DNA of 43,856 nucleotides, taken from Escherichia phage GertrudWoker_Bas73. The stretch lies in sequence record PQ850603.1. The stretch is one strand, 5' to 3'. A model generated the notes under the pieces. It was given only the letters and a program-made list of their open reading frames with translations, did no database searches and was not told where the DNA came from. Positions 4,904 to 41,912 of this stretch are shown piece by piece. The position numbers and the translations under genes are program-made. The first letter of the stretch is position 1. Each line of letters starts with the position of its first letter.

Positions 4904-4930
4904 AAGGCCCCATTAAGGGGCCTTAGTTTT
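4904..4930. terminator. bidirectional hairpin terminator between convergent genes
   Basis: 'aaggcccc attaa ggggcctt' with T-run 'agtttt' downstream and A-run upstream. Confidence 0.6.
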
Positions 4931-5133
4931 CAACGGAATCTTGTGTTTAAATCCTGCTCATGGACAACCCTCAGAACAGTGTCATAATCCCCGTATCTTC
5001 CAGGTTCAAATATATCTAATGCCTTGTAAGCAGACATTGCGTCAAGGAAAACCTGCAGAACCTTTTTAACCCGGCACAAGTCACCGTCGAACTCTTCATC
5101 GAACTCTTGAACTACTTCGCAAATTGCATACAT
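4930..5133 (-). CDS. hypothetical small protein (67 aa)
   Basis: minus-strand ORF with GGAGG RBS (complement of 5140-5144) and its own promoter at 5161-5189. Confidence 0.5.
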   Translation of the reverse strand: MYAICEVVQEFDEEFDGDLCRVKKVLQVFLDAMSAYKALDIFEPGRYGDYDTVLRVVHEQDLNTRFR

Positions 5134-5160
5134 TTTTCACCTCCTGTTTAAGTTAACTGA

Positions 5161-5189
5161 ATAGTACCCTATTATATTGGGGTGTGCAA
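5161..5189 (-). promoter_or_regulatory. sigma70-like promoter TTGCAC-N17-TACTAT with embedded AATAGGGTACTATT palindrome
   Basis: minus strand reads 'TTGCACaccccaatataatagggTACTATtcag' about 25 nt upstream of the 4930..5133 start. Confidence 0.5.
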
Positions 5190-14256: not shown

Positions 14257-14284
14257 AATTATACCCTCAGTAAGTTACTGGTGA

Positions 14285-14313
14285 ATAGTACCCTATTATA
14301 TTGGGGCGCGCAA
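14285..14313 (-). promoter_or_regulatory. sigma70-like promoter TTGCGC-N17-TACTAT with AATAGGGTACTATT palindrome
   Basis: near-identical to the promoter at 5161-5189. Confidence 0.5.
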
Positions 14314-15199: not shown

Positions 15200-17504
15200 T
15201 ACGGCTTCCCTAATTGCCAGAGTAAAAACAGAAGGCGCTGATGTAGCCGCTAAACAGCTTGACGCTATGGCGGCATCCGCAGACCGTGCGGACACATCCG
15301 TAAACAAACTAACGCCGGATGTTAATAAAGTAAACTCCGCTACGTCTAAAGCGGCTTCTGACGGTTTCGCTAAATTCCGTAACGCCGCCGGGCAGGTAGG
15401 CTTCCAGGTGCAGGACATGGTCGTCCAGTTGCAGTCCGGCACGTCTGCATTCGTAGCAATCGGGCAACAAGGCTCTCAGCTTGCGGGTGCTTTCGGCCCT
15501 GGTGGCGCGGTGCTTGGGGCCGTAATTGCTCTTGCGTCAGCAATCGGCGGTGTCCTGTATAAATCGTTAACCGAAGCAGAAGGCAGTTCAAAAGACCTCG
15601 AAGCCGCACAGAAACAGCTAAAAGATACTTTCCAGCAAACGGCGTCCGGCTCTCTCGAACTGACAGACGGCCTTATCCAGCTTACCCAAATCAGCAGAGA
15701 AGCGGCGGAGACTCAGCTTGCGCTGGCTAAGGCTAACGCGGACCTTATCGCACAGCAAACAGCTAAAGCTGTTCGTGAGGACGCAGAATCATGGGAGACA
15801 TGGAAGGCATCCACAGCATCAGCTATCAGCCAGTACGATGCACTGACCTCTAAGGGTGCTGATGTAGGTGACACGTTAGAAAAACTCGGTGGTACTTACG
15901 AGGGTAACATCGTAGGCGTCAACATGCTGGCGCAGAATATCGCGGAGCTTAGCAGTAAGTTCGGAGTTAACCGTGACCAGGCGCTGGAGATGATAGCGGC
16001 GCAGAGTGCGTTTAACAAAGAGCCAACCGCCGAGAATGCCCGTCGCATCGCCGATGTGTTTACCGACTGGCTCGGTAACACAAAACAGTTGAACCCGGAA
16101 CTTATCCGCCTGACGGACAACGCCAACAAGAACGCCACGGCACTGGAGAACGCGGAGAAGTCAGCAAACGCGGCGGCAGAGGCCCAAAAGAATCTTGGTC
16201 GCAACGTCAACTCAACCACGCAGAGATTCCAGGAACAGAACGAAGCTATCGTCAAAAACCAGCAAATCGCCATCTTAAGCGACCGTGAGCGTATCCGGGC
16301 GCAAGCTGAACTTGATAAACAGGCGTTCGCTAAACGTGAAGCCGTCACCAAAGAACAGATAGCCGCGTATAATGCGGCCCGCGACGCGGAAGCGCAGCAA
16401 GACATCGCCCGCATTGACAAGACCGAGAAAGAGAAGGCCGACCGCGAGGCTAAATCGAACGAGGAACGTCTGGCGGCACAAGCCAAACGCGAAGAAACAG
16501 CGGCACAACGTCAGAAAAAAGCGGCGGAAGATTTCCTGGCTACTGTCGACCGCACAACCGGAGACGAAATTTCACGTATCACAGCGGCAGAAGAACAGAA
16601 ACTGGCGAAACTTGAAGAGTTCAACCGCGCCGGAACGATAAGCCAGCAGCAGTACGAAAACGCCAAAACTCAAATTATGCTCACCGCCGAGCAGGCCAGA
16701 CAGGAAGAACTGGATAAGAAAAGAAAAGAGCAGCAGGAAAAGCAGCAGAAAGGCGACGACTTCATGGCCCAGATTATGGGTCAGAACGCCGCTGAGCTTG
16801 AGCTTCTCGACATCCAGGAACAGCAGAAACTGTCGGTAGCAGATAAGTACCGCGAGCAGGGTTTGATTAGTGAGAAGCAGTATCAGGCTGCGCTTAATGC
16901 CATCAACGAGCAGTACGCCACGAAGCGTGCCGACGCAACGGCAACGGCCTTCGGTAACATGGCTTCAAACATCGGTTCGGCTTTGGGCGAGGCTTCTGGC
17001 GCGTATAAGGCATTCGCTATCGTACAGGCCACTATCGCCACGTACACCGCGGCTATCGAGGCGTACAAGTCCACAGCGGCTATCCCTGTAGTTGGTCCGT
17101 TCCTGGCTCCTGTAGCTGCCGCCGCTGCCGTTGGGGCGGGTATGGCGCAGATTTCCGCTATCAGGTCCGCACGTGAACAGGGCGGACAGTTATCAGCCGG
17201 GCAGGCTTCCACCATCGCTGAACGTGGTAAACCAGAAGTTATCATGCCCGCTGGTGCGTCACGTGTACGCACCGCACAGCAGATGAAAGAAATTATGGGG
17301 CAAAACGGGTCTTCTTCCGGCCCATCTAATGTTACCATTGTAAATAATACATCGAGTCAGATTGGCAACGTATCCACCGAGCAGGATGATGAAGGCCGTC
17401 TGCGTATCATCATAGAAGAGCAAGTTGCTGCATCTTTGCAGAACAGCAACAGTAAGATTAGCAAGGCCCGCAAGGCCACAAGAAACGCGCCGGGGTTTAA
17501 ATAA
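15177..17504 (+). CDS. tail tape measure protein
   Basis: 775 aa, long Ala/Gln/Glu/Lys-rich coiled-coil regions plus hydrophobic Gly/Ala-rich segment; canonical position. Confidence 0.85.
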   Translation: MRAEKMADTASLIARVKTEGADVAAKQLDAMAASADRADTSVNKLTPDVNKVNSATSKAASDGFAKFRNAAGQVGFQVQDMVVQLQSGTSAFVAIGQQGSQLAGAFGPGGAVLGAVIALASAIGGVLYKSLTEAEGSSKDLEAAQKQLKDTFQQTASGSLELTDGLIQLTQISREAAETQLALAKANADLIAQQTAKAVREDAESWETWKASTASAISQYDALTSKGADVGDTLEKLGGTYEGNIVGVNMLAQNIAELSSKFGVNRDQALEMIAAQSAFNKEPTAENARRIADVFTDWLGNTKQLNPELIRLTDNANKNATALENAEKSANAAAEAQKNLGRNVNSTTQRFQEQNEAIVKNQQIAILSDRERIRAQAELDKQAFAKREAVTKEQIAAYNAARDAEAQQDIARIDKTEKEKADREAKSNEERLAAQAKREETAAQRQKKAAEDFLATVDRTTGDEISRITAAEEQKLAKLEEFNRAGTISQQQYENAKTQIMLTAEQARQEELDKKRKEQQEKQQKGDDFMAQIMGQNAAELELLDIQEQQKLSVADKYREQGLISEKQYQAALNAINEQYATKRADATATAFGNMASNIGSALGEASGAYKAFAIVQATIATYTAAIEAYKSTAAIPVVGPFLAPVAAAAAVGAGMAQISAIRSAREQGGQLSAGQASTIAERGKPEVIMPAGASRVRTAQQMKEIMGQNGSSSGPSNVTIVNNTSSQIGNVSTEQDDEGRLRIIIEEQVAASLQNSNSKISKARKATRNAPGFK

Positions 17505-26849: not shown

Positions 26850-27165
26850 TTCTAAATTCCTTATATTGTTGGGGTATGTGCTTACTATAATAGTCTGCTA
26901 TTAGGGTGTCAATCTGTTTTATCGAACCAACGACAAAAACATTTGCGCCACGTTTACGTATACGCTCGTGTTCCCGTAGCTGGTGCGGGTCTGGCTTAGT
27001 GTTTTCGTCTTTCTTCACCTCGACGAACCAGACGATGCCGCCGGGTAGAATTGCCAGCAGGTCAGGAGCGCCTGAACGTCCTTCGTAGGAAAGTTTACGA
27101 ACGAGGCCACCAATAGCCTCGAATCGCTCTTTTGCGTATTTCTGGATGCGGCCCTCTTTAGTCAT
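26833..27165 (-). CDS. VRR-NUC domain nuclease
   Basis: PD-(D/E)XK-like 'GAPDLLAI ... VWFVEVKKDEN'; ~110 aa. Confidence 0.6.
   Translation of the reverse strand: MTKEGRIQKYAKERFEAIGGLVRKLSYEGRSGAPDLLAILPGGIVWFVEVKKDENTKPDPHQLREHERIRKRGANVFVVGSIKQIDTLIADYYSKHIPQQYKEFRNETRI
26884..26912 (-). promoter_or_regulatory. sigma70-like promoter TTGACA-N17-TATAGT with AATAGtctgCTATT palindrome
   Basis: minus strand reads 'TTGACAccctaatagcagactatTATAGT'; lies inside the 3' end of the VRR-NUC ORF. Confidence 0.45.
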
Positions 27166-31205: not shown

Positions 31206-31234
31206 AGTGATTAGAACTATAATAGCTAACTATT
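31206..31234 (-). promoter_or_regulatory. sigma70-like promoter TTGACA-N17-TATAGT with AATAGctaaCTATT palindrome
   Basis: minus strand 'TTGACAcatgaatagttagctatTATAGT' ~45 nt upstream of SSB start. Confidence 0.5.
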
Positions 31235-31433
31235 CATGTGTCAAATAAAATTTTGCAATAGGGATTATGTTCTCGAAATTAAGCATATTGGCCGGTTCGA
31301 ACTCATCCTCTACAGGGTCGTATCGCATCATGGTACCGTTCAAGAACGTGAACGATTCCGAGTGTAGATACCCATCCCAGCGCCATACCATCAAAAAATC
31401 TTTATCAGTCGGCATTTCATTTACTTGAATCAT
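31230..31433 (-). CDS. hypothetical protein (67 aa from ATG at 31433)
   Basis: ATG overlaps exonuclease stop (ATGA) and is preceded by 'GAGGAGGA' SD formed by the exonuclease C-terminal codons; track start 31463. Confidence 0.45.
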   Translation of the reverse strand: MIQVNEMPTDKDFLMVWRWDGYLHSESFTFLNGTMMRYDPVEDEFEPANMLNFENIIPIAKFYLTHE

Positions 31434-32809: not shown

Positions 32810-33109
32810 TTACCGCCAATTGAGTACATAACTGCAAACATTCCGTACCTCCCACTGGTCAATTAAATGCCGTGTCTTATGGTCGCAGTGTAGGGCCCAG
32901 CCGTACATCGACTCGAAGACATAAAAGTCAGGCTTGGCGAAAGTCGTGCGCTTAATATGCGACACGTGACAGCCTATATCTTTGGGCCGCGGTACTTTGC
33001 CTAAGTACGCCATCTCTTCCATCTGGTGCGCACCTGACGGCGCACGTAACAGCCATAGCGCCTCTGTGTTATCCCGCCTGTCGACGGCGCGGTAGAGTTG
33101 GTAAATCAT
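32810..33109 (-). CDS. hypothetical protein
   Basis: 99 aa minus-strand ORF in replication operon. Confidence 0.4.
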   Translation of the reverse strand: MIYQLYRAVDRRDNTEALWLLRAPSGAHQMEEMAYLGKVPRPKDIGCHVSHIKRTTFAKPDFYVFESMYGWALHCDHKTRHLIDQWEVRNVCSYVLNWR

Positions 33110-33152
33110 AATTCAGACCCTCAGTTAAAGCGGCCCGAAGGCCGCGGGATAG

Positions 33153-33653
33153 TTATTCTTCTTCGAAATACTTGTTCTTGATTGCCGTCAGGCGTTCCAG
33201 GTATTCGGCCAGGTCTTCGTCTTTAATCGCGGCAATCTTCATCTTCTTACCGGTGAACTCTTCCAGCAGTTCATCAGAATCATCGCACGCGGCATCGCTC
33301 GGACCTTCGTTAATTGCATCGTCGATAGCCTGAATCTGGTCGCGCAGAGACTTATAGTCTACTTCTTCTTTCTCTTCTTCCGGCTCTGGCGTCGTTTCCT
33401 CTACTTTAGCTTTACGCGGCTTGCGTTTTGGCTTCTCTTCCTCCGCCGGTTTAGTGTCAACTACGTCTTCACCTTCAACCGGGATTTCTTTTGTTGCTTC
33501 TTCAGCGCACTCAGCTACCGCTTCTTTGGTGTACGATACCGTCTCTACTTCCAGCGGCGTGGCAACCTGAACAACTTGTTTCGCACTGTTCGCGGCAATC
33601 AGTTCGTGCGCAACTACGAAACGTTCCAGTAATACTAAGAATTTCTCTAACAT
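33153..33653 (-). CDS. hypothetical acidic protein
   Basis: 166 aa with Glu/Asp-rich stretches 'PEPEEEKEEVDY', 'DDSDELLEEF'. Confidence 0.45.
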   Translation of the reverse strand: MLEKFLVLLERFVVAHELIAANSAKQVVQVATPLEVETVSYTKEAVAECAEEATKEIPVEGEDVVDTKPAEEEKPKRKPRKAKVEETTPEPEEEKEEVDYKSLRDQIQAIDDAINEGPSDAACDDSDELLEEFTGKKMKIAAIKDEDLAEYLERLTAIKNKYFEEE

Positions 33654-33677
33654 TATTTATTCTCCTGTTTATTTGGG

Positions 33678-33905
33678 CTACTCGCCGTCGCCTTCTGTAA
33701 GGCTATCGTCTATTAATTCAAATTTACCGTTTGGGTGTTGAATAGCTTCTTGCCCGCAATGGTCGCAGACAACAAGTTTATCGAACCCATCAAACTCATC
33801 CCCTACTACGCAAGAAAGTACAAATTTATGTTTTGTGCACACTTCTTGCGGAGCGCCGAAAATTGCTCGAAAACCTTTAGCTATGGCCCCAGTGATTGTG
33901 TTCAT
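33678..33905 (-). CDS. small zinc-ribbon-like protein
   Basis: 75 aa with Cys pairs 'CTKH...C' and 'CDHC'; preceded by promoter 33934-33962. Confidence 0.45.
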   Translation of the reverse strand: MNTITGAIAKGFRAIFGAPQEVCTKHKFVLSCVVGDEFDGFDKLVVCDHCGQEAIQHPNGKFELIDDSLTEGDGE

Positions 33906-33933
33906 ATCTGCCCCTCTCGTTTGGTATGGGCTA

Positions 33934-33962
33934 ACTATAATAGCGAACTATTCACATGTCAA
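33934..33962 (-). promoter_or_regulatory. sigma70-like promoter TTGACA-N17-TATAGT with AATAGcgaaCTATT palindrome
   Basis: minus strand 'TTGACAtgtgaatagttcgctatTATAGT'; the same region on + strand carries 'TATAAT' facing the Cro-like gene. Confidence 0.5.
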
Positions 33963-34026
33963 TGGGCTTTTCTAAAATAATTAATATGGTACTATTCACA
34001 TATCAACTGACTAAGGAGTAATTGAC

Positions 34027-34242
34027 ATGCAACCATCTGAACTAGGCATCCGTGTAGAACAACGCCGCAAAGAACTCGGCATCTCCCAGCGCCGTTTGGC
34101 GGCCCTGACCGGCGTTTCCCAGGGCGCGATTAACCAACTGGCACTTGGAGTAACTCAGGACGTCCGCCCGGCAACGCTGTTCAAACTGGCGGAAGTTCTG
34201 GAAGTAGACGCCAAGTGGCTGGCGTTAGGTGAAGGGGCTTAA
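34027..34242 (+). CDS. HTH XRE-family (Cro/CI-like) transcriptional regulator
   Basis: 71 aa; 'ISQRRLAALTGVSQGAINQLALG' classic HTH; RBS 'aaggag'; only + strand gene in the leftward block. Confidence 0.75.
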   Translation: MQPSELGIRVEQRRKELGISQRRLAALTGVSQGAINQLALGVTQDVRPATLFKLAEVLEVDAKWLALGEGA

Positions 34243-34257
34243 AGCCCCTTTCTTTTT
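34233..34257 (+). terminator. rho-independent terminator after Cro-like gene
   Basis: 'aggggc ttaaa gcccct' followed by 'ttctttttt'. Confidence 0.6.
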
Positions 34258-34259
34258 AC

Positions 34260-36500
34260 CTATTCCAAATCCTCCTCTGTCACCACCAGCATCTCATTTG
34301 GTTCGTATAGTGTCTTCGGCCTTAATCTATCCCCTATTCTTTCGGGTATACGATATGTTCTCGGTACTACTTCGCCGTTAGCATCGCAACCAAGCATTAG
34401 TTCTCCATCTTTCAACATTTTATCAAGATGGGTGTTAGTCACAGAGAAGTCACCGGAACGAGCCACTATCTGCTGCTGAGTAAAACCGCGACCTGTGTCA
34501 TCTGACTGTTGCAGGTCTTCCAGTGCCGAAAGTATTGACTCCTTCCTTACTTCATCCCTGCCGCGTTTAACTTCTTCCTTTACTTTTTGCTTACCTTCTT
34601 TCGTCAACCCTTCTTCCCGCTCTTTCTCCTCGTCAGTTTTGAACGGCTCGAAACCCCACGGCATCAACACAAGCGCCTTGTGTGGTTCAGGAAGGTCCAG
34701 GTTTACGATTGTGCCGTATTCTTCTGTGCCCCCCAGGAACTCAACCGCACGGTACTCTTTCGGCGGCGGAGCTTCGCGGAACTGCACAGACTCCAGCACC
34801 ATGCCAACCGTTTTCTGTTGAGGACCGTGCTTAAATTTCGAGTGGTATACGTTTATTTGACGGTCGGTTGCACGTTCGATTGTCAGTTCCACGTCAACAC
34901 CCGCATACAGCGCCCCACTGCCGCGTGCTTTCTTTCCACCCTTCGGCGTATGGTGGACAACGCCTACTGCGGCTTTAGTTGCATCGCGTACTTCTTTCAG
35001 AATGGCGATAACTTTACCCATGCCGATTGCTGTTGATGAACTGTTCTCGTCGAACTTATCAATCGTCAGTGCCAGGGTCTGGTTAAGGGTGTCGAACGCA
35101 ACCATGCCAATTGGCTCGTCGCCAGCAGTTTCGCGCATTAACTTAATCAGGCTTTTAAGTTTGCCGACTTCGCCCATATCGATGACGTGTACATAATCTT
35201 TACCTTCCCCGCCATATTTAGCCGCTAGTGCATCAATACGGGTGCGTGTAGCTGCGCCACCCTCACCATCAATATAGAAATGGTGGCAACGCTGGGTATC
35301 CGCCCCCGCAAACCTGTACCCGGCGGCGCTGAGGTACATCATCCCCAGCGTATAGAACGATTTGTACGTGCCAGATTCCCCGACGATATCCCAGATACAA
35401 TCCGACGGCATGTACCCCTCAACGACGAAATCAGCCTTTACCGGCTCCGGTAACTCGTCCTCCTCTGGGTCCTCGTCGCCTTCCAGGTCGTCGAGGCTGC
35501 ATGAAACGGATTCACGTACACCCCAACCGATGGCCTCGGCGACTTCACTGAACGGCAGCCCGGTCGCATCGCACGCATACTTCCACACCTCTTTAGGTGA
35601 CATGCCTTCGGTTGCCGTAATGTCGGTGTCGTGAATCATGGTTACGTTCGGCGCTTCGTACCCCTCGCGCGGGAAGCACAGCAGGAAGTCATCCGGGCGC
35701 GGGGTCGGGTCGCTGTAGTTCTCGGCATGTTCCGGCGTAGCTGGCATTTTCAGGCCGCGTGGCGTCATGATGCCGCCGTACTCGAACGCCAGTGCTTCAA
35801 ACGCATCGGTAAACGCGGTGCGCAGTTCTTCTGGTATCTGGTAGTCAGATGCGCTGCTAACGTCAACGGCGGGGATACCTTCCAGTAGCTCATCCGGGTC
35901 AATCAGGTCGTTGCGGCGCGACCAGATAACGGTAGAGCCGACCGGAGGCAGGTACATCGGCTGGGACAGCGTAAACCCGCTGCGGTCGGCGCCCATGCCT
36001 TTGAAGAAGTGCTCCAGCAATCCATGACGAACACGGATGATGTCGCCGCCTTCGACCGGGCGGGCCAGCGGCATGACGACGCGAAAGCGCGGGGACTCGT
36101 CGGTATGTGACGCCGTGGTATATAGGCACATCGCCTGGCGGCTGCGCTTAACCAGGCGCACAGCTTCCTGATACTCTTCCGGCGTTGCACTGTCGAAGTC
36201 CAGATACGCCAGCGACGATTTGCTTACAGACGCGTCACAGCGATAGAAGAAGCCTTTACGCGCCTGCTTAAAGTCTCCAGTTTCCAGGTCTTTTACGGTG
36301 CTGTGCGTAGAGTCGCACGCGGCTGTGATATAGCCGGGGGCGGTCTTAGGGTTAACACCGTCACGAACAGCATCAAGCGGCTGGATTAACTCTTTCAGGT
36401 CGTCCAGTGTTGCCGTGTGTGTGGTTCTGACGTTTATATCCTTTTTCTCTGCCCGCGCGTTGCGACGTGACCACGAGTAGGATAAAATTACATCGGACAT
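34260..36500 (-). CDS. DNA primase/helicase (RecA-like ATPase with N-terminal primase-like region)
   Basis: 746 aa; Walker A-like 'VGESGTYKS'; 'VAFDTLNQT ... VVHHTPKGG' RecA-like core; C-terminal tail 'TEEDLE'. Confidence 0.6.
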   Translation of the reverse strand: MSDVILSYSWSRRNARAEKKDINVRTTHTATLDDLKELIQPLDAVRDGVNPKTAPGYITAACDSTHSTVKDLETGDFKQARKGFFYRCDASVSKSSLAYLDFDSATPEEYQEAVRLVKRSRQAMCLYTTASHTDESPRFRVVMPLARPVEGGDIIRVRHGLLEHFFKGMGADRSGFTLSQPMYLPPVGSTVIWSRRNDLIDPDELLEGIPAVDVSSASDYQIPEELRTAFTDAFEALAFEYGGIMTPRGLKMPATPEHAENYSDPTPRPDDFLLCFPREGYEAPNVTMIHDTDITATEGMSPKEVWKYACDATGLPFSEVAEAIGWGVRESVSCSLDDLEGDEDPEEDELPEPVKADFVVEGYMPSDCIWDIVGESGTYKSFYTLGMMYLSAAGYRFAGADTQRCHHFYIDGEGGAATRTRIDALAAKYGGEGKDYVHVIDMGEVGKLKSLIKLMRETAGDEPIGMVAFDTLNQTLALTIDKFDENSSSTAIGMGKVIAILKEVRDATKAAVGVVHHTPKGGKKARGSGALYAGVDVELTIERATDRQINVYHSKFKHGPQQKTVGMVLESVQFREAPPPKEYRAVEFLGGTEEYGTIVNLDLPEPHKALVLMPWGFEPFKTDEEKEREEGLTKEGKQKVKEEVKRGRDEVRKESILSALEDLQQSDDTGRGFTQQQIVARSGDFSVTNTHLDKMLKDGELMLGCDANGEVVPRTYRIPERIGDRLRPKTLYEPNEMLVVTEEDLE

Positions 36501-36558
36501 GTTGTATTTCCTTCAGCAAGTAATTTGGCCTCGGCGTTCACCGCGTCGGGGCTTTCTT

Positions 36559-36792
36559 TTATTCCAGGTCTTCTAAAGTAGCGGTCATTCCGCGAACTTC
36601 AGCAACAGCACTATATTTCCCGCCAACATTTTTCACGACACCGGATTTAACCAGTACCTTCAACGACCCTTCAATAATGGCTGAACTATAGTACTTAAAA
36701 TAACTACGGCGCAAGTCGATAACGCTGCACGACCCTTTTTTACGTGTTAACGAAACGACCGCCGTAAATACGCGTGACTGGAACTCGGTCAT
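36559..36792 (-). CDS. hypothetical protein with C-terminal 'TLEDLE' tail
   Basis: 77 aa; stop-start overlap with upstream HTH gene. Confidence 0.45.
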   Translation of the reverse strand: MTEFQSRVFTAVVSLTRKKGSCSVIDLRRSYFKYYSSAIIEGSLKVLVKSGVVKNVGGKYSAVAEVRGMTATLEDLE

Positions 36793-37019
36793 TTCACGTT
36801 CTCCTTAATCCACGCTTCCACTTTCTCCGGGTCAAACGTACCTGGCTGACGGCGGCCCATAATGCGAATACAACAATCCGGGAACTTCCCACTCTTTAAC
36901 CAGTTATTCAGCGTTCGACGAGTAACCCCGATACGCTCAGCTACCTCATTCTGCGTCATTCTCAAACCCTCATTATCAGTTAACGAAACAAGTATACATT
37001 GCGAATAATGGGAAATCAA
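36789..37019 (-). CDS. small HTH DNA-binding protein (AlpA/excisionase-like)
   Basis: 'MTQNEVAERIGVTRRTLNNWLKSGKFP' HTH; likely start at internal ATG (36959) with RBS 'gaggg'. Confidence 0.5.
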   Translation of the reverse strand: MISHYSQCILVSLTDNEGLRMTQNEVAERIGVTRRTLNNWLKSGKFPDCCIRIMGRRQPGTFDPEKVEAWIKENVK

Positions 37020-37306
37020 ACATAATCACACCTATTGACATTATGAAAATCTTCGTTTAAGGTGCTTCTATATCTTAGTTACTTTGATTCTTGTTCACCT
37101 TGTAAAACCGCTTAAAACGCAGCTGCGCGCAGCGCAAGCAAAGTGTTAAGCGCAAGTTTACTGAACACGAGAATTAGCGTAACTTTCCTTCCTAAGTATC
37201 TTCGGTTGCCCTGGGCAAGCTCTATTCTCATCGGCAGCATATCTCTTAAGTATCTGATTTTCTTAATGTGCCGCAGATTCGCAACCGTAAAAATGTAACG
37301 ATTATT

Positions 37307-37332
37307 GGGCAGGCTTAAGGCCTGCCCTTTAG
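37307..37332 (+). terminator. GC-rich hairpin, possible weak terminator in control region
   Basis: 'gggcaggc ttaag gcctgccc' followed by 'tttagtt'. Confidence 0.35.
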
Positions 37333-37399: not shown

Positions 37400-37428
37400 T
37401 TGCACACCCCAACATAATAGGATACTAT
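37400..37428 (+). promoter_or_regulatory. sigma70-like promoter TTGCAC-N17-TACTAT with AATAGgataCTATT palindrome
   Basis: 'TTGCACaccccaacataataggaTACTATtcac' 25 nt upstream of the 37454 start. Confidence 0.5.
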
Positions 37429-37453
37429 TCACTTATCGAAACGAGACAGAGGG

Positions 37454-38705: not shown

Positions 38706-38734
38706 TTGCACGCTAGGATAGAATAGGCTACTAT
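38706..38734 (+). promoter_or_regulatory. sigma70-like promoter TTGCAC-N17-TACTAT with AATAGgctaCTATT palindrome
   Basis: 'TTGCACgctaggatagaataggcTACTATtcat' upstream of the 38766 ORF. Confidence 0.45.
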
Positions 38735-38765
38735 TCATTTACACGAACGAGAGGAGCGACAGAGG

Positions 38766-41861: not shown

Positions 41862-41883
41862 ATCTATTTTCTGCAATGACTAG

Positions 41884-41912
41884 TTGACTATTACCTACGA
41901 CCCTATTATATT
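41884..41912 (+). promoter_or_regulatory. sigma70-like promoter TTGACT-N17-TATATT
   Basis: consensus-like spacing; ~35 nt upstream of the 41946 start. Confidence 0.5.

Follow-up and report, generated by a model that had tools for sequence, protein, structure and literature searches.

Background

In lambdoid phages, cro is followed by the replication genes, and the phage 434 operator OR1 (ACAAG-AAAG-TTTGT) has a 5+4+5 layout. A Cro-type gene also persists without CI in lytic phages of Streptococcus thermophilus (Sfi19/DT1 type), where it is the visible remnant of a deleted lysogeny module. Here, we analyzed a 43,856-nt stretch of DNA from Escherichia phage GertrudWoker_Bas73 (PQ850603.1; this whole stretch is referred to as the window), which carries a gene for a 71-amino-acid (aa) helix-turn-helix (HTH) protein of the XRE/Cro type (hereafter XRE) and a 14-bp dyad that recurs at nine promoter-like sites. 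XRE is probably a CI-less, stand-alone repressor of the 434 Cro type, which would control its own gene and shut off the early and middle promoters of a virulent phage. The gene, its fold family, the promoter-like elements, the gene order, and the excess, positions, conservation, and lineage change of the dyad were all obtained with computational tools.

A 2-kb query from the window (33000-35000) matched 472 phage records, of which the best was Escherichia phage AnnaReinhart_Bas75 (98% identity, 100% query coverage), followed by other Kagunavirus isolates and, at lower identity, by Jerseyvirus (Salmonella) records. Judged by this list of matches, the window is a Kagunavirus genome (Guernseyvirinae), that is, the genome of a Jersey-like virulent siphovirus. 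The complete annotation of Bas75 (81 features) contains no integrase, no partition gene, no full-length CI-type repressor, and no RNA polymerase, and an RNA polymerase is also absent from the annotated genes of Jerseyvirus SETP3. An earlier reading of the window made from its letters (hereafter the sequence-only reading) had seen no integrase or CI-like partner, which the annotation of this near-identical complete genome bears out. Phage fBC-Eco01 was also reported to be without lysogeny genes (PMC9825357).

Kagunavirus, Jerseyvirus, and Cornellvirus are common phages in therapy and biocontrol and small chassis for synthetic biology. The transcription programme of the Guernseyvirinae appears unstudied in the literature searched, and searches for promoter or regulator studies of the subfamily gave only descriptive genome papers. 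In coarse RNA-seq data of Kagunavirus K1B4, both DNA-binding genes are transcribed, the HTH gene _008 early and the 'specific DNA binding' gene _004, located beside the AAA helicase _005, in the middle phase (PMC12645636). By gene order, _004 is probably XRE.

XRE Gene and Predicted Fold

34027..34242 (stop codon included), + strand: XRE/Cro-type HTH gene, 71 aa, from the open reading frame (ORF), translation, Pfam HTH_3 match, and codon variants
34013..34018, + strand: ribosome-binding site AAGGAG, 8 nt before the ATG, read from the sequence and kept in Kagunavirus and Jerseyvirus
34231..34260, + strand: putative intrinsic terminator of the XRE transcript (hairpin 34231-34251 and T tract), from a terminator scan

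The codon variants of XRE among 36 Kagunavirus loci (71 synonymous versus 17 nonsynonymous) indicate that it is a real gene under purifying selection. The ORF, its translation, and a Pfam match to HTH_3 (PF01381; E 3.9e-13; residues 11-65) agree with the 71-aa XRE-type HTH protein that the sequence-only reading had placed on the + strand, and the score of 49.7 bits against a cut-off of 23 exceeds the gathering score of the XRE/Cro-C1-type HTH family. That reading was also correct in taking XRE as the sole credible + strand gene between 24.3 and 37.0 kb, as all other credible genes in this interval lie on the - strand, and in giving the gene its own terminator, which appears as an intrinsic-terminator-like hairpin (fold energy -17.7 kcal/mol) followed by a T tract. 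The annotations of SETP3 and fBC-Eco01 include this element as well. Read on the - strand, the hairpin is not followed by a U tract, and leftward helicase transcripts may therefore run through it and become antisense to XRE.

Homologues of XRE occur in 536 phage records, and the GenBank names for the gene include repressor, regulator, Cro, and DicA. The top relatives of solved structure are dh434, a variant of the 434 repressor DNA-binding domain (E 4.8e-6), and 434 Cro (E 8.5e-6), in addition to the N-terminal DNA-binding domain of the 434 repressor (E 1.1e-5) and P22 C2. Residues 6-68 of XRE align with chain residues 4-64 of 434 Cro, which is also 71 aa long, and XRE, which is small and has a single domain, counts as a homologue of Cro or of the CI DNA-binding domain. 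A compact, all-helical, lambda-repressor-like fold is predicted by a single-sequence AlphaFold2 (AF2) model (predicted local distance difference test, pLDDT, of 81) with four DSSP helices, the last of which is long and less confident. Foldseek searches with this model returned HipB, C.BclI and other C proteins, 434 Cro and repressor, SinR, and P22 C2 at template modeling (TM) scores of 0.6-0.7. Residue Q32 of XRE, which is invariant in four aligned Guernseyvirinae proteins, aligns with Gln28 of 434.

The gene neighborhood was compared with those of other small XRE-family proteins. There is no co-operonic toxin gene next to XRE, as both neighbors are on the opposite strand, and the candidate promoter and terminator of its own count against a type II toxin-antitoxin operon of the HipB/HigA kind. 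Restriction-modification (R-M) genes, which would suggest a C protein, are likewise not adjacent, the neighbors being the helicase-primase and replication genes. There is no divergent CI gene with a shared multipartite operator, since the divergent neighbors are orf75 and the gene for a 166-aa acidic protein. XRE in the window also does not head a rightward early operon before replication genes, as it is monocistronic and convergent with the helicase gene.

Dyad Statistics and Promoter-Like Sites

An unbiased enumeration of all 5-mer dyads with gaps of 0-10 ranked AATAG-N4-CTATT as the top spaced dyad of the window, with 7 perfect copies, and also placed it first in SETP3, with 5. The remaining high-scoring dyads are mainly G+C-rich; they form mutually overlapping sets at a small number of loci, and several fall on terminator-like sites. 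With one mismatch or less over the 12 arm positions, TAATAG-N4-CTATTA occurs at 7 sites, compared with 0.065 expected from 200 Markov simulations. The conserved element can be written as (T)AATAG-N4-CTATT(M), with a 14-bp core and 16 bp including the flanks, and it tops the A/T-rich dyads, or ties for the top, in nearly all of 37 Kagunavirus and ~11 Jerseyvirus contigs. A position-frequency matrix of the sites was uninformative for the arms because the sites had been selected on them.

Every dyad site overlaps a promoter-like core, and across the nine sites the dyad takes three different registers. All promoter assignments are consensus matches only.

33938..33953, strand not assigned: dyad O1, TAATAGCGAACTATTC (TAATAG-N4-CTATTC), perfect 14-bp core, from the direct-repeat unit and the Kagunavirus alignment
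33982..33997, strand not assigned: dyad O2, TAATATGGTACTATTC, one core mismatch (left arm TAATAT), invariant in 38 Kagunavirus sequences
33934..33962, - strand: type B promoter TTGACA-17-TATAGT (11/12 match), leading to orf75, the 166-aa gene, an exonuclease gene, and onward
31216..31244, - strand: second type B promoter TTGACA-17-TATAGT, dyad 31220-31235 in the spacer, upstream of the SSB and DNA polymerase genes
26884..26912, - strand: third type B promoter TTGACA-17-TATAGT (consensus match), perfect 16-bp palindrome 26888-26903 in the spacer
33987..33995, + strand: candidate XRE promoter, extended -10 TGgTACTAT (-10 hexamer 33990-33995), read from the sequence
37400..37430, + strand: type A TTGCAC-17-TACTAT opening the rightward early operon, -10 covered by dyad 37415-37430, with a SETP3 equivalent
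38706..38736, + strand: type A TTGCAC-17-TACTAT (consensus match), dyad 38721-38736 (GAATAGGCTACTATTC)
14283..14313, - strand: type A TTGCGC-17-TACTAT, dyad 14283-14298, for a leftward cluster inside the tail genes
5159..5189, - strand: type A TTGCAC-17-TACTAT, dyad 5159-5174, driving a 67-aa leftward gene (4930-5133)
41878..41912, + strand: promoter TTGACT-17-TATATT, dyad 41878-41893 (one core mismatch) over the -35, after the endolysin terminator

The three type B promoters (TTGACA-N3-[dyad]-TAGT, the dyad filling the 17-bp spacer) are the best three sigma-70 matches between 24 and 43.8 kb, and all of them point leftward in the replication module. The one at 33962-33934, which the sequence-only reading had identified on the - strand, has its spacer filled by O1 from about -11 to -26, and its -35 together with an upstream A/T-rich block is kept in all Guernseyvirinae-like lineages examined. 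The site orthologous to 31216-31244 is annotated as a promoter in SETP3. In type A promoters (TTGCAC/TTGCGC-17-TACTAT), the dyad lies over the -10, and the SETP3 equivalent of the site at 14283-14313 is an annotated promoter (15243-15271). The promoter at 41878-41912 heads an operon running into the packaging genes; its dyad is invariant in Kagunavirus, and an equivalent is present in Jerseyvirus.

The candidate promoter of XRE itself has no good -35 in the window, and its predicted transcription start is near 34002. O2 overlaps its -10, from about -20 to -5, and the single mismatch in the left arm of O2 (G to T) creates the TGn of the extended -10 (TGGTACTAT, 33987-33995). This element was preferred as the XRE promoter because its -10 (TACTAT) and dyad register are the same as in the four other type A promoters, and because the homologous site of SETP3, TTGCAC-17-TACTAT, has a proper -35. 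Two other + strand candidates were rejected, namely TTCACA-16-TAAAAT, whose -35 is not conserved, and the TATAAT at 33936-33941. The latter had been proposed as a + strand promoter element by the sequence-only reading; the hexamer is present, but it lacks a -35 and arises only because the left arm of O1 and the - strand -10 overlap.

The sites have the same positions relative to XRE in Kagunavirus and Jerseyvirus, at approximately -28.9, -19.7, -7.1, and -2.8 kb, -89 and -45 bp, and +3.4, +4.7, and +7.85 kb. The imperfect sites at O2 and at the late promoter are kept in imperfect form in both genera, and O1 of Jerseyvirus has one core mismatch too. Across 38 unique Kagunavirus sequences, there is essentially no change in the arms of O1 and O2, in contrast to the N4 of O1, which varies; a dimer-binding site is expected to show this pattern. 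The variable register of the dyad relative to the promoter core fits occlusion of the promoter and not a promoter-intrinsic element or an activator site. The spacing between O1 and O2 is 44-45 bp in Kagunavirus, 55 bp in Jerseyvirus, 65 bp at locus L061, and 45 bp at locus L076 (the last counted by hand on the sequence); these spacings differ by approximately one helical turn and stay in the same helical phase, which hints at a face-of-helix constraint, although only four lineages are involved.

The same motif has been described as a promoter. PHIRE found seven copies of tgAATAGTa-ccTATTat-T in fBC-Eco01, where the motif was assigned to a 'phage-encoded RNA polymerase' (PMC9825357), and seven promoter sequences with this motif in Golestan, which were taken as phage promoters (PMC7203180). 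The dyad could accordingly be a mere duplicated promoter consensus that serves no repressor, with XRE having an unrelated role. The right arm of type A sites does overlap the -10 hexamer TACTAT. However, the RNA polymerase postulated for the motif is annotated in neither Bas75 nor SETP3, and the motif sites coincide instead with sigma-70-like -35/-10 pairs. Moreover, one and the same dyad occurs in three registers relative to these pairs, its left arm is invariant though it lies in spacer DNA that sigma-70 does not read, this left arm changes jointly with the right arm in two divergent lineages (L061 and L076), and the N4 center is free to vary. A promoter consensus without a repressor is therefore a distinctly unlikely explanation of the dyad.

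The sequence-only reading had instead proposed an autoregulated switch acting through a different palindrome, ATTCACATGTCAAT, common to back-to-back promoters. This palindrome exists at 33950-33963 and is 12/14 symmetric; it contains TTGACA when read on the - strand and TTCACA when read on the + strand, where TTCACA-16-TAAAAT is a 10/12 promoter-like match. However, it consists of TGTCAA, the -35 hexamer of the - strand promoter, joined directly to a TTCACA that is not conserved, and among the 38 Kagunavirus sequences the center of the palindrome is the most variable intergenic stretch (TTCAC-ATG becoming TTCTGG, TTCACG, TTCGGT, etc.) while TGTCAA is fixed. The equivalent in SETP3 is the non-palindromic ATTATTTATGCAAG, and the window has 8 matches to ATTCACATGTCAAT with three mismatches or less versus 2.9 expected, which is mildly above chance. 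The palindrome was rejected as an operator on account of its variability in Kagunavirus and its absence from Jerseyvirus. The second, weaker copy described at 33978-34006 reflects a direct repeat: two units of 25 nt, at 33938-33962 and 33982-34006, are 84% identical and lie 44 bp apart, and the supposed copy is the later of the two. What survives of the proposed control of divergent promoters is a Cro-type protein with an operator-like dyad predicted at each of the two promoters; the local two-promoter switch does not, as the same dyad occurs at nine promoter-like sites spread over the genome. In addition, the XRE system has no antagonist repressor that could make it bistable, and it looks like one-way negative feedback or shut-off. 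A local bistable or autoregulated switch through ATTCACATGTCAAT is thus highly improbable.

Variation of the Dyad Among Lineages

The comparative set consisted of 80 viral contigs encoding XRE relatives. In the more distant lineages, XRE is 39-49% identical and altered dyads are found at orthologous promoters. At locus L061, the dyad reads AATAC-N4-GTATT; the leftward promoter has it in the spacer, the XRE promoter has it over the -10, and it recurs at two rightward promoters. A further dyad, TTAGC-N2-GCTAA, is found at L076 and L079; its sites at L076 are a single type B spacer, the region upstream of XRE, and two promoters of the form TTGACn-17-TAAAGT. In both L061 and L076 the change is symmetric in the two arms, which is hard to explain by sigma-70 and points to a drifting phage-encoded dimer. 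No HTH protein other than XRE was found throughout these lineages. The TAAGA-N4-TCTTA dyads of L057, L065, and L068 were not used, as they lie mostly in coding DNA and have no promoter context, and Serratia phage eta was uninformative because only its structural module is in common.

The dyads might alternatively be operators of another factor, such as the Cox/Apl-like HTH_17 protein encoded at 36789-37019 on the - strand, another phage protein, or a host regulator, with XRE acting locally or elsewhere. The dyad is identical in Kagunavirus and Jerseyvirus, between which HTH_17 is 79-88% identical and XRE only 48%, and HTH_17 is encoded 2.7 kb away behind a dyad-free promoter. As for a host regulator, the late site ACTAGTTGACTA (41878-41893) resembles the E. 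coli trp operator (CTAG-N4-CTAG), although this resemblance may simply reflect the embedded -35 hexamer TTGACT. On the other hand, detection of HTH_17 was confined to Kagunavirus and Jerseyvirus, whose helicase block is encoded on the - strand, and no homologue was detected in the lineages with a + strand helicase that still carry promoter dyads; HTH_17 is therefore disfavored as the common dyad binder. A dyad that changes between phage lineages would be unexpected for a shared enterobacterial host factor, and the densest dyad cluster (two within 60 bp) lies upstream of XRE and not of HTH_17. Overall, a binder other than XRE appears unlikely.

Proposed Role of XRE

We infer that XRE is the binder of the dyad, that binding represses, and that the sites form an affinity hierarchy. 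An XRE dimer would bind the 14-bp core AATAG-N4-CTATT (16 bp with flanks), which overlaps nine promoter-like cores: three type B spacers, the -10 of five TTGnnn-17-TACTAT promoters including that of XRE, and the -35 of one late/packaging promoter. Bound at any of these registers, XRE would exclude RNA polymerase and thereby exert negative feedback on early and middle transcription. All promoters would fire on phage entry, after which XRE would accumulate and fill the perfect operators first, shutting off early and replication transcription. Its own promoter (O2) and the late promoter would be repressed last, because only these two sites in the window have a conserved core mismatch.

Several observations weigh against this role. 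No binding, footprint, transcription-start, or mutant data for Guernseyvirinae phages were found in the literature searched; the promoters are consensus matches, and the K1B4 gene number was mapped to XRE, probably correctly, by gene order. Operators on nearly all promoters, including a late one, are an odd design for a virulent phage, and the 71-aa protein has no obvious oligomerization domain. The Cornellvirus dyad, TATTAG-N4-sTAATA, is poorly symmetric. Furthermore, XRE of Kagunavirus and Jerseyvirus are only 48% identical and differ in their recognition helices (SQGAINQ and SQSLITH, respectively), yet the dyad is the same, which weakens the argument from co-variation. One dyad with differing recognition helices is possible nonetheless, as 434 Cro and the 434 repressor share operators.

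The presence of operators on nine promoters, the late one included, could also suggest that XRE is an immunity-type repressor, which either is a relic of a non-integrative carrier or pseudolysogenic state or serves such a state. Distant relatives of XRE (~38-44% identity) include CI-like repressors, three of which have S24-type C-terminal domains (L077, L078, and L080), as well as records annotated as CI repressors. A paper on Jerseyvirus SGP-C described turbid plaques, superinfection-immune but unstable 'lysogens', and a possible episome, and named XRE Cro and HTH_17 cI (PMC8790156). The evidence of that paper is weak, however, and both Kagunavirus and Jerseyvirus are as a rule considered strictly lytic. 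XRE itself lacks a C-terminal oligomerization or cleavage domain, Bas75 has no annotated integrase, partition gene, or full-length CI-type repressor, and the promoter of XRE, with the weakest operator and no -35 in Kagunavirus, is a poor basis for stable maintenance. An immunity function is hence very unlikely. It is just as doubtful that XRE is a master silencer able to hold the genome of this CI-less, integrase-less phage quiescent. If it were, the dyad-free HTH_17/helicase operon would escape quiescence, and the episomal carrier or 'unstable lysogen' state, which has been claimed once, for a Jerseyvirus, would rest on such silencing. This would matter for a subfamily that is widely regarded in phage therapy and biocontrol as strictly lytic.

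If XRE does act as a Cro-type repressor through the dyad, one 71-aa protein and one 14-bp element would account for most of the regulatory wiring of these phages, with nine promoters, three geometries, and a predicted affinity hierarchy, and would offer a simple handle for engineering the timing of expression. The published description of the motif as a promoter of a phage RNA polymerase would also need correction, and lysogeny would not have to follow from a 'repressor' annotation, on the strength of which at least one paper has called a Jerseyvirus temperate. The annotation at the level of genes is already known, and the link between protein and motif is modestly new.

Gene Neighborhood

33678..33905, - strand: orf75, 75-aa Cys-rich gene, full-length match to phrog_32657 (E 2e-52)
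33153..33653, - strand: gene for a 166-aa acidic protein ('13.88 kDa late protein', phrog_3127), the conserved first gene of the leftward replication operon
34260..36500, - strand: replicative helicase-primase with an AAA_25 domain, convergent with XRE
36789..37019, - strand: HTH_17 (Cox/Xis-like, 'excisionase and transcriptional regulator'), a TTG-start ORF of 76 aa
36991..37063, strand not assigned: divergent promoter-like pair without a dyad, from consensus matches, kept in SETP3

The gene orf75 sits between the leftward promoter and the 166-aa gene in ~7/41 Kagunavirus loci and is absent in fBC-Eco01. In Bas75, a gene is annotated on the opposite strand (Bas75_0049, corresponding to ~33759-33980 on the + strand), which was rejected in favor of orf75. 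The - strand gene is probably real and the Bas75 annotation probably an error, as judged from the phrog_32657 match, the better conservation of the - strand frame as a protein (91-100% versus 71-99% for the + frame), and homologues at L043 and L045 that lie in the right early region with the reading strand reversed relative to the window. Neither orf75 nor the 166-aa protein has a Pfam match at E ≤ 0.01, and both belong to PHROG families of unknown function.

The helicase-primase is encoded on the - strand in Kagunavirus and Jerseyvirus, whereas in the other lineages in which a homologue was detected it follows XRE on the + strand. XRE heads a rightward operon that contains the helicase-primase in Cornellvirus VSiA, SE1, and Serratia phage Tsm2, and no terminator was found between XRE and the helicase in VSiA. 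In Kagunavirus and Jerseyvirus, the helicase block lies on the strand opposite to XRE and is driven from the dyad-free promoter at 37.0 kb. Helicase identity between the two arrangements is only ~27-34%, and seven Kagunavirus contigs have a helicase only 31-32% identical to that of the window beside an XRE that is 94-99% identical. Such low helicase identity beside a near-identical XRE indicates that the event may be a replacement of the module rather than a simple inversion. The isolated position of XRE among leftward genes, which the sequence-only reading pointed out, is real as a layout but does not look like a design feature and is best explained as history: the helicase-primase block was probably inverted or replaced relative to Cornellvirus-type relatives, by which XRE would have gained its own terminator in the Kagunavirus/Jerseyvirus lineage. 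The junction between the helicase and XRE recombines often, and the XRE terminator marks this recombination junction. Junction variants of the helicase block were noted at 34260-37019 (- strand) of the window and at loci L008, L009, L091, and L057-L076.

For HTH_17, translation probably begins at the ATG at 36959, just after a GAGGG, for a protein of ~56 aa. This reading agrees with the annotated genes of 183 nt in Bas75 and 171 nt in SETP3. On the - strand, TTGATT-17-TATACT (37019-36991) precedes the HTH_17/helicase operon; on the + strand, TTGACA-17-TAAGGT (37035-37063), the -10 of which matches at only 3/6 positions and which is a candidate only, precedes a transcript without an ORF and is BPROM-annotated in SETP3. 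Apart from this pair, all strong-looking promoters would belong to the proposed XRE regulon. The ORF-less unit (37035-37330, + strand) extends from the candidate promoter at 37035-37063 to a terminator at 37307-37327. Its 270-nt RNA has a fold z-score of -4.85, with 0/200 shuffles folding as well, and conserved blocks surround a variable hairpin between Kagunavirus and Jerseyvirus. The unit may be an early small RNA or leader; an Rfam scan of the whole window gave 0 matches.

Comparison With Known Systems

434 Cro resembles XRE in its length of 71 aa and single-domain XRE fold, and is among the two best solved-structure matches. The candidate operator of XRE is a 14-bp dyad with a 5+4+5 layout like that of OR1, and the glutamine at the position of 434 Gln28 is invariant in the four Guernseyvirinae proteins. 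XRE also lies at a divergent promoter region, and in the Cornellvirus type it heads an operon into the replication helicase. Functionally, the proposed role is akin to the 'turn-off' of early promoters by lambda and P22 Cro. Unlike 434, however, the phage is virulent and has no CI partner, no tripartite OR/OL, and no integrase; the operators would be single, unclustered, and dispersed over nine promoters, and XRE of the window is monocistronic, has its own terminator, and is convergent with the helicase.

Single operators scattered over the genome, each overlapping a promoter, are known for P1 C1, and in this respect C1 is similar to the proposed XRE system. C1 is an immunity repressor of a temperate plasmid prophage, belongs to another fold family, and has asymmetric operators, whereas XRE is an XRE-family protein of a lytic phage with dyad operators. 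The C proteins of R-M systems (C.AhdI, C.BclI, and C.Esp1396I) are XRE dimers of ~65-80 aa in the matched chains (Foldseek TM ~0.6) and autoregulate through dyads in their own promoters. XRE differs from them in having no adjacent R-M genes, no tandem C-box, and a predicted regulon that extends beyond its own promoter. In contrast to the Cro-type gene of Sfi19/DT1-type phages, XRE is kept across the sampled Guernseyvirinae groups together with a conserved multi-promoter operator set. Compared with these systems, XRE is a conventional Cro-type regulator with an unusually dispersed and well-conserved set of candidate operators, a Cro-only circuit that involves no new mechanism.

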